Both the position numbers and the translations under genes were made by a program. A stretch of DNA of 64,000 bases, taken from positions 442,122,001 through 442,186,000 of the forward strand of contig OZ024740.1 in the NCBI GenBank assembly GCA_964016885.1. Reading direction: 5' to 3'. The DNA comes from Eledone cirrhosa (taxonomy: Eukaryota). The notes beneath the pieces were generated by a model. It was not told the origin of the DNA. It did not search any database and saw only the letters and a program-made list of their open reading frames with translations. Shown here piece by piece: positions 37,451 to 39,949 of the stretch. Each line of letters starts with the position of its first letter. Within the stretch, counting starts at the first letter, position 1.

Positions 37451-38955
37451 TCAGGTTATAAATTGGGTGTTGAGCCCCAGTCCACTACCGATTGGTGGAT
37501 GTGTTCTATCTATAATAAGTGCTTCCTTAATTCTAAGATTGCCGAGGTTTCTTTCCTTAGTCTCTATCCCAACTGTTATGTTTTTATCGGTGTCCTTGCA
37601 TTTAACCAGATGTTTCTTAAATGAGGAAGCGTTAGTATTGAGGTGTTCTTTTATTCTTATGTGGAGTGGTCTGGTGGTGCTACCTACGTAGAAGTTGTTG
37701 CATTTGTCACACTCTAGTCTGTATACTACGTAAGCCTGGTGGCACAGGTCTGTGTCGCCGATGGGGCAGCTGGCCAGTCTGCAGCAGTTGTCATGTCTGG
37801 TGGAGTGTCTCTTGGCCAGCCGTCCGTGCAGAGAAGGACCCGAGTGGGCCAGTTGGATATCCAGTCCCTCTCGTCTGATGGCTCTGCGGATGGCTGTTGT
37901 TGTTTCTTCACTGAAGTGTGGGAGCTTCAGGAAGCAAGTGTTAGTGCCTCGGGTGTGGTGTCCTCTGTTCTTTCTGGCACGGTTTGTGGTGGATGTCGTG
38001 TATCCGTTCAGTTTGAGTACTTCCAGGAAATGTGTGGTGTGTGTGTCTCGGTCTCTGGCGTCGGTGCATTTGTTCTTGATACGTGCCAGTTCGTTCTTTA
38101 TGTATCCGAACTTGGCACCGAGTGGGAGGGCCGATCTGAAATGTACGAACAGGTCCCTGCTGGCGGATTTTTTATAGAAGCAGGTGTGGATGTTGCCCTC
38201 CTCTGCCACCCTGAGTTGGAAGTCCAGTAGGGATAGGGATCCGCGGTCATCGGGGTGTTCCATGCTGAACTTTATACTGGCGTCCATGCTGGAGAACGCC
38301 GTGTATATTTTCTCTGCCTCCCCACGGGACGATGTAAGGATGAGCATGTCATCTACACATCGGGTGAAGAAGGCACGGGAATGGCAGGTGTTGAGGGCTC
38401 GGCATTCTAGCTGGTTCATGTAGGTGATGGCCAGCAGGCCCGAAAGGCTGGATCCCATGGGTAATCCTGTTGTCTGTCTGTATGTGTGATGGTGGAAGGT
38501 GAAGTACGTGTTGTCTACTGTGAAGGACAAAAGCTGGTGTATGTCCGTCGGGTGGAGGCCGTAGCAGCGGATGTTCTCTGCGACCACGCAGTCCGTCAAT
38601 ATATCGACAGCTGGGTGAGCGGGGACTGTAGTGTAGAGGGAGACAACGTCGAGGCTAAAAGCGTATTTATTTAGTTTAAGTTGTTCCGGCTGGAGTTGGT
38701 GTAATCTACGCATAACTTCGTCGGAGCTACTGACATGTCCGGGGAAGGTGGAGAGCAGAGGCCTGAGGACCTGGGAGAGAAGCCAGGACACCTTGTATAG
38801 GGGTCCTTCTATGCTAGAGACGATGGGTCTTATTTGCGTCTTAGTGCTATTCCTGTGGGTCCCGATGAGGTGGCAGAAAGTGGGCAGTCTGCCATCTCTA
38901 GTGGTGTAGTTGAGTTTAATTTTATTCGGGAGTTGTCTTCTCCTACAGATATCGA
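37451..38955 (-). pseudogene. PLE RT + GIY-YIG (open frame but motif-mutated: CVDD)
   Basis: IRPIVS, FSLDVVSLYT, YRQTTGLPMGS, TRCVDD, SLLD, VVYRLECDKC..FYVGSTTR.L..RIKEH, EALII. Confidence 0.9.
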
Positions 38956-39029
38956 CGGACTATCTCCAGCCTTGTACCACAACTCGCTGAAACCCCAGAA
39001 CCTCTGTCCAGGGTCATCTCCGCCACTAT

Positions 39030-39949
39030 AGACAGGTCATACCACCACCGCCGAGACTACGAGAAAATACGCCTAACGCAAAAATTTCTCAAACTCAGGA
39101 CGGCCAACTGTCTTAACAACATCCCAACTCTAAACACCAACAGAGACGAACAAGACGGTACCAACACCGAACCTAGCGGCACCCCGACCAACAACACACC
39201 TGACGCAAAACACCTCGTCACAGACTTGACAGGATCCCTCTCCCGAGAGGAATTAGACCTCCTCAGCCTGGGTCCCAAGTTCATATTGAAACAGAGACTG
39301 GACGACAGACTATGGCTCGACATAGAAACGAATTTCTGTCGGACTGCCTACCAACTGAAATGGATATCGACTCTCGACAACAACGCCACGGAATCCACCA
39401 CACCCAGATTCCCGATATACCAACTAGATCGCCCACTCTATCCACCGCCCGCCAACCGCGAGCTGGAAGAAAAACTCTCGAGACTGAAACATTCCGTATT
39501 TAACATCTTACGGAAACAGAAGAGGATGGCCCCTAGCCTCTCCAGGACACAACAACTCGCCCTGAAGAACCTACGGAATAGGGAACTTATTTACTTGCCA
39601 TCCGACAGGGGTGAAGAGTTCTGCGTCGTCTCTCGGGCCACATGCGATAACCTGGCCTTCGAACACCTGGGCGACAGTGAATTGTGCACGGTGGTCCCGG
39701 ACATGACCGCAGCCCAGATCGAAGGACAGACCAACTCCATTTGGTTCGATATCTGTAGGAGAAGACAACTCCCGAATAAAATTAAACTCAACTACACCAC
39801 TAGAGATGGCAGACTGCCCACTTTCTGCCACCTCATCGGGACCCACAGGAATAGCACTAAGACGCAAATAAGACCCATCGTCTCTAGCATAGAAGGACCC
39901 CTATACAAGGTTTCCTGGCTTCTGTCCCAGGTCCTCAGGCCTCTGCTCT
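39030..39949 (+). pseudogene. PLE N-terminal region / RT start (inverted segment)
   Basis: DLTGSLSREELDLLSLGPKF, LKNLRNRELIYLPSDRG, RPIVS. The last ~200 bp duplicate 38752-38955 in inverted orientation. Confidence 0.88.

Follow-up and report, generated by a model that had tools for sequence, protein, structure and literature searches.

Clustered A>G changes, written at the RNA level by ADAR-type editing and fixed by reverse transcription, have been described in a small minority of copies of proviruses of exogenous retroviruses, namely those of bovine leukaemia virus (BLV; PMC8025556) and of Rous-associated virus 1 (RAV-1), avian leukosis virus and human and simian T-cell leukaemia viruses (HTLV-2/STLV-3; reviewed in PMC8586724). 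These proviruses are somatic virus copies, and in BLV the edits lie within ~70 bases of the 3′ long terminal repeat (LTR; PMC8025556). The APOBEC 'DNA editing' of vertebrate LTR retroelements (PMC4866542) likewise leaves a clustered, strand-biased deaminase scar that is read against a subfamily, although it arises by C>U on the complementary DNA (cDNA) and appears as sense G>A. We describe a Penelope-like copy in the octopod Eledone cirrhosa whose mechanism would resemble that of proviral ADAR hypermutation and whose readout resembles an APOBEC scar, but in a Penelope-like element of an invertebrate host. The copy lies in a stretch of 64,000 bases (G000:C1:442122001-442186000 of a 3.0-Gb assembly, hereafter the window), of which it spans positions 36897-39954 as a 5′-truncated and 5′-inverted member of a young family. 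Judged from its letters, 63 A>G changes in this copy very probably come from reverse transcription of ADAR-hyperedited element RNA. In contrast to the proviral cases, these sites extend over 1.9 kb of coding sequence of a host element and include a duplicated internal control; in contrast to the APOBEC scars, the changes are A>G, apparently made on RNA, in a non-LTR element of an invertebrate.

Two other published observations come close. Hyper-edited RNA clusters in repeats (PMC4365171, PMC9068888) share with our copy the substitution, its clustering, the depletion of 5′ G and the enrichment of 3′ G, but they are mismatches between RNA and genome, whereas here the G letters stand in the genome sequence. 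The 5′ end of the endogenous mouse mammary tumour virus Mtv61 (PMC12548423) is also inherited and shows an A>G excess that led to ADAR being considered; however, that excess is about twofold and in a context that its authors call unlike ADAR, as opposed to 63 A>G to 0 T>C in a fitting context here. The screen of PMC4866542 kept G>A and not A>G alignments, treated LTR elements and used invertebrates as a negative control, which remained at noise level. A 2016 review describes the role of ADAR in mutating retrotransposons or shaping their subfamilies as not determined (PMC4982230), and in cell culture ADAR1 is described as restricting L1 without editing, with no edits in the L1 RNA read (PMC5224506). 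In the open text of PubMed Central and bioRxiv, which leaves subscription papers outside, we came across no published non-LTR or Penelope copy that is inherited and shows the signature of ADAR.

The locus had been singled out by an earlier reading of its letters alone (the sequence-only reading), which proposed a hyperedited transcript and claimed a bias that tracks the sense strand in both halves. When each column of the copy was set against the most frequent letter in 54 other loci of the family, the 3′ part (arm A, minus strand) showed 42 A>G, 1 T>C, 2 G>A and 2 C>T in 1981 columns, and the inverted 5′ part (arm B, plus strand) showed 33 A>G, 0 T>C, 1 G>A and 1 C>T in 991 columns, in full agreement with that claim. 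The full comparison used 204 locus records, which reduce to 185 distinct places besides the window copy and were chosen as best matches to parts of the window, as 60 stretches picked by position from the first 100 listed of 371 matches to a 31-base pattern (either letter allowed) in the assembly, and as the long copies listed together with the remainder of earlier match lists. A column was counted if one letter made up 80% or more of it and 10 or more segments covered it, and changes found in more than 3 loci were excluded as subfamily variants; this sampling may miss edited copies, since patterns fix some letters and best-match lists favour unedited copies. Two of the 65 A>G sites (39581 and 39717) were removed because G also occurs there in a sister subfamily (subfamily 2). 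Over 2878 columns the copy then carried 70 near-private changes, of which 63 were A>G, 3 C>T, 2 G>A, 1 T>A, 1 C>G and none T>C, so that the spectrum is far from symmetric. In the 184 other loci, 195 A>G stood against 176 T>C among 2225 changes in 406,209 columns, a background that is symmetric for these two classes and that predicts 1.4 A>G in the window copy (probability of at least 63, ~1e-79).

Hyper-editing has been called where A>G accounts for over 60% of all mismatches and for 5% or more of a stretch as long as a read (PMC4365171); with 63/70 mismatches and a densest stretch of 19 in 145 bases (39581-39725), our copy lies above both values. Clustering of sense G>A, of the APOBEC type, was not seen (2/70). 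Antisense (T>C) hyper-editing was absent among the sampled loci, the maximum being 6, in older copies, and the other same-class runs of at least three in the family were 5 C>T, 2 G>A and 1 A>C, plus the locus L092 described below.

The altered protein motifs can be read against the family itself. Several natural copies have intact frames with SDKG, YHLIKTHK, RYVDD and PPINNRLEL, and 5/6 natural copies inspected contain a single open frame of 820-909 amino acids; CVDD, DRG and IGTHR are thus not the letters of the family. Relative to the family, RYVDD has become RCVDD (TAT>TGT at 38358), DKG has become DRG (AAA>AGG at 39608-39609) and YHLIKTHK has become CHLIGTHR (39827/39838/39839/39848), each by pure sense A>G, as the sequence-only reading had it. 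Its terminal motif was right in the A>G changes, which turn PPINNRLEL into PPIGSGLGL at 37476-37489, but the family has R where K had been guessed. The yardstick it used, a second Penelope-like family in the window (Family A), does have the four motifs quoted for it; at only ~24% protein identity, however, it is unsuitable for this purpose. Also, the copy begins at 36897 and not at 37451 as first placed. Both frames are open as had been stated (502 amino acids on the minus and 340 on the plus strand), and the 63 sites fall on the three codon positions as 18, 21 and 24, alter the residue in 37/56 codons without introducing a stop, which is what a one-step event would give. Overall, the two outcomes named beforehand as fatal to a hyperedited transcript, CVDD/DRG/IGTHR in the family consensus and a symmetric spectrum, were both looked for and neither was found, in an octopod host that has ADAR genes, so the proposal is supported.

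A depletion of 5′ G, UA and AA contexts and runs of changed sites had all been predicted, and all are present. Adenosines following G were changed in 3/186 cases (p 5e-4), those following U in 21/175 (p 0.007) and those preceding G in 20/167 (p 0.007), with UAG (8/36) and AAG (9/42) as the leading triplets in the 65-site set; background A>G sites of other copies have 5′ G in 38/151. Depletion of 5′ G together with enrichment of 3′ G is the motif described for hyper-edited RNA (PMC4365171). The sites are also strongly clustered, with 43 neighbour pairs at most 20 bases apart against 22.7 expected (reached in 0/20,000 shuffles), 11 adjacent pairs, and blocks of 139, 133 and 159 untouched adenosines at the 5′ end, in the middle and at the 3′ end.

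These patterns bear on two other explanations. A burst of reverse-transcriptase errors during one insertion, for example under skewed nucleotide pools, would put C opposite template A and would likewise hit a single strand, in one step, with the changes in place at integration; if arm B arose by fold-back of the first cDNA, the errors would even be common to both arms. However, such a burst predicts neither the avoidance of 5′ G, nor the preference for 3′ G, nor patches more than 130 untouched adenosines apart, the same enzyme left no A>G excess in the 184 other loci, and arms copied separately from RNA would not agree at 10/10 sites, for which reasons we think it very unlikely. A DNA-level process, be it the deamination of adenines, in the cDNA or in the copy once integrated, or a defence directed at TpA, would fit the fact that adenosines after T were changed most often (21/175), but TpA is found at only 21/63 sites, and deamination of A in first-strand cDNA would read as sense T>C, of which none was seen. 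A process acting after integration would moreover hit both strands and the two arms independently, whereas 10/10 changes are in common, and the Family A copies in the window have no such asymmetry outside a microsatellite; an origin in DNA is, to our mind, scarcely credible.

The two arms provide the timing. The A>G changes follow the sense of the element on opposite genomic strands, appearing on the plus strand as T>C in arm A and as A>G in arm B, and in the 209-base overlap that the arms share 10/10 A>G are on both arms, while the 3 other differences are on one arm only. Because the ten sites agree between arms on opposite strands and the other changes are single-arm, the A>G changes date from integration or earlier, which upholds this part of the sequence-only reading.

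Four patterns built on the edited letters and run over the whole assembly match this copy only, and at the 63 sites the other copies have G in 14/11,898 cells, with at most 2 per locus; the edited form therefore did not multiply. The same counts bear on the idea that the copy is a member of a diverged G-rich subfamily or has undergone conversion by one. In its favour, the copy includes a short tract at 39129-39158 (plus strand), in which four letters of subfamily 2, one of them found in few of its copies only, stand inside a subfamily-1 copy, and 2/65 sites are G in subfamily 2. The tract is a short template switch or conversion and not editing. The two sites at which subfamily 2 also has G might conceivably mark A:C mismatches in a duplex between the two subfamilies; they are 2/8 columns of this kind, both within the densest cluster (39581-39725). 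With G so rare at the other 63 sites and the four patterns matching nowhere else, a G-rich subfamily is refuted within this assembly, and we consider it next to impossible.

Coleoid editing outside neurons is reported to target repeats (PMC9068888), and the host genome gave 12 deaminase-domain exon matches at four places, one of them 95% identical to Octopus vulgaris ADAR2. An ADAR origin would then proceed as follows. A sense transcript of the family would first become double-stranded, probably by pairing with antisense RNA from the same family, because one natural unit was found to have no internal inverted repeat longer than 14 bases. The signature suggests that ADAR then deaminated ~7% of the adenosines, in patches between family positions 465 and 2357. 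By established chemistry, reverse transcriptase uses inosine as a template for C, and would thus have placed C opposite each edited base. The first cDNA would have been primed at the 3′ end in the TA microsatellite, and the second would have started internally, 209 bases past the end of the first, a probable route to the structure observed, with arms in opposite orientation and ten overlap changes alike. The equivalent two-armed insertion of L1 is called twin priming. Two cDNAs on one RNA fit the description of a purified Penelope-like protein, which extends both target strands and initiates inside its template (PMC11167929). The protein that did the copying probably came from unedited RNA, or from the edited RNA before it was edited, since the template reads CVDD. 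The insertion would then have been inherited, later gaining a few ordinary changes.

Several observations weigh against an ADAR origin. The enrichment of 5′ A falls short of significance when taken by itself (p 0.056). Changes made at the RNA level are not the only ones that two arms can share, as other head-to-head loci contain 22 private changes common to their arms (of ten kinds, only 2 A>G) against 119 that are not, so that, contrary to what the sequence-only reading drew from it, sharing does not alone prove an RNA origin; if the first cDNA folded back and a deletion followed, changes could also end up on both arms. Neither a double-stranded RNA (dsRNA) partner nor the source locus was found among the sampled loci, where the closest copies have other letters at several subfamily columns and none is a subfamily-1 copy with the subfamily-2 tract, and the edits may instead have entered DNA in the preceding generation, in a source copy that the assembly lacks. 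Among the 24 public runs listed, none has half the words of 39480-40160 and none is RNA, the best share being 0.34, which does not show edited words, as ~0.4 of the words in that segment are free of edits. Three contig sets and one restriction-site-associated DNA (RAD) run covering 37440-39745 have the family letter at the displayed edited sites, with 38568 in X3 (1645/1668) as the lone displayed exception to a full-depth family letter. No read or contig with the G letters was seen at the displayed sites, and none was recognised as a piece of this copy, in contigs that drop rare variants, as one copy among hundreds would be, and in runs that may come from other individuals.

This last result would also be expected if the G letters were an assembly artefact, produced by sequencing error or by polishing with edited RNA reads, and not part of the animal's DNA. 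However, an edited transcript running through the locus would alter one genomic strand in both arms, and the arms instead are changed on opposite strands, at the same ten family positions in both and with changes that reach 1.3 kb past the inverted overlap. Sequencing error, for its part, has no reason to track the sense of the element or to shun 5′ G, and the 184 other loci of the same assembly are symmetric. Given the strand pattern, an artefact is unlikely, and we put its chances very low.

A lighter case of the same kind may exist. At locus L092 (G000:C1:127699600-127703900), five private sense A>G lie within 53 bases of the 3′ untranslated part, in both head-to-head arms (locus positions 468-520 and 3734-3786). 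Their contexts are CAG, TAC, TAG, TAT and CAC, none following G; the seven other changes in the overlap are single-arm, and the A>G are absent from the other 156-159 loci covering each site. We regard L092 as a second, light candidate for an edited insertion. One strong and one weak case in 186 loci correspond to a frequency with a 95% interval of ~0.01-4%.

In regards to the element itself, its type is ordinary. Canonical Penelope-like elements with a C-terminal endonuclease are described with one open reading frame (ORF) coding for reverse transcriptase and then GIY-YIG (10.1101/2021.04.23.441226, PMC11167929), as well as with partial tandems, inverted 5′-truncated copies and TA microsatellite targets, all of which recur here. 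Both domains gave Pfam matches above the cut-off (RVT_1, E 5e-12; GIY-YIG, E 6e-5), and the CCHH motif with two cysteines between GIY and YIG, a feature of endonuclease-bearing Penelope-like elements (10.1101/2021.04.23.441226), is present as VVYRLECDKCNNFYVG followed by two histidines in the translation. Copies of the family are up to 99.5% alike, many loci join the 3′ end to the start of the next unit as pseudo-LTR-like partial tandems, and 30/60 position-sampled stretches (L083-L142) have both orientations side by side, an arrangement described for these elements (10.1101/2021.04.23.441226). The head-to-head loci L084, L103 and L123 are near-perfect palindromes with arms of up to ~2.3 kb, strong potential sources of dsRNA. 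On the sense of the element, the family background shows 535 C>T against 296 G>A and 209 C>A against 116 G>T, as counts without base-content normalisation.

At the window locus, whose features are collected in the table, the two arms meet with one base in common, and a tandem-repeat fragment of ~220 bases lies at the outer junction of arm B. No target-site duplication was definable for the insertion at 36897-39954, and the right flank was rejected as an empty site, its 99% matches being tandem-repeat arrays. A hammerhead ribozyme would be expected in the pseudo-LTR of such an element, but Rfam gave no hammerhead match in 36880-37500; a motif at 37036-37060 (minus strand), without an Rfam match and also carried by natural copies, resembles what we take to be the hammerhead core, with CCGAAGA against the presumed usual CTGANGA. 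The suggestion that editing possibly disabled the element is moot, since the ORF lacks its 5′ end and its two parts face opposite ways; whatever the edits did, this structure alone makes the copy dead.

Table. Features of the window, with positions counted from its first base.
Feature	Position	Strand	Remarks
Arm A	36897..38955	-	3′ two thirds of the element, with reverse-transcriptase core, GIY-YIG endonuclease and 3′ untranslated part; A>G on sense at 42 sites; Pfam RVT_1 and GIY-YIG
Arm B	38956..39954	+	5′ part of the element, inverted; A>G on sense at 33 sites, first 430 bases without any
Duplicated overlap, copy 1	38747..38955	-	209 bases; 10 A>G in common with copy 2
Duplicated overlap, copy 2	39746..39954	+	209 bases
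Open frame, 502 amino acids	38959-37454	-	Reverse transcriptase and GIY-YIG, with CDKC between the two motifs
Open frame, 340 amino acids	38962..39981	+	N-terminal part with DKG-type motif
Densest cluster	39581..39725	+	19/50 adenosines read G, 2 of them G in subfamily 2 too
Reverse-transcriptase core cluster	38198..38376	-	11/54 adenosines, including Y>C of YVDD at 38358
Endonuclease and ORF-end clusters	37424..37775	-	18/140 adenosines
Fragment of unrelated tandem repeat (~465 bases)	39952..40174	+	Joins arm B via a 3-base overlap (ACC); followed by a TA-rich microsatellite
TA-rich microsatellite	35790..36900	unassigned	Contains the 3′ end of the element; usual target of the family
Family A	15192-17150, 29410-32511, 34852-36134		Second Penelope-like family, distantly related, in three pieces

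Elsewhere in the window, the 3′ parts of Family A have a canonical-looking hammerhead core. An A>G asymmetry in Family A proved to be apparent only, being located in microsatellite, and a CVDD at 27879 is a chance match in a repeat that does not code for reverse transcriptase. The ~465-base tandem repeat of 39952-40174 recurs at L164, L165 and L166 in both orientations, and in L164 it ends in a TA microsatellite at the same point; the piece may be a passenger mobilised by a Penelope-like enzyme. An imperfect palindrome of 411 bases lies at 28661-29071, and a tandem array of ~215 copies of a 75-base unit (91% matches) occupies 47872-64000 and continues past the end of the window. Finally, an open stretch at ~26000-27000 on the minus strand starts with what we presume to be a Myb/SANT-like segment (NWSDNEIDILINTW) and has poly-Q and poly-T runs and CCCH-like motifs.

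The sequence of this copy is evidence that retrotransposon RNA, once edited, can still go through to integration, in the group of animals best known for RNA editing, and the question can be tested by a genome-only screen for clustered sense A>G in ADAR context within young retroelement families. The rarity of such copies speaks against the view that this family is held in check chiefly by editing-induced mutation, unless most edited RNAs never reach integration. We see an even chance that in the germline of octopods ADAR reaches retrotransposon RNA and that about one insertion in 100 writes edits into inherited DNA. If so, a real though rare route would lead from RNA editing to DNA, for which two-armed Penelope-like insertions would supply a built-in replicate in each case, and genomes would preserve, alongside the APOBEC record, fossils of ADAR activity in the germline that can be dated and have yet to be read.
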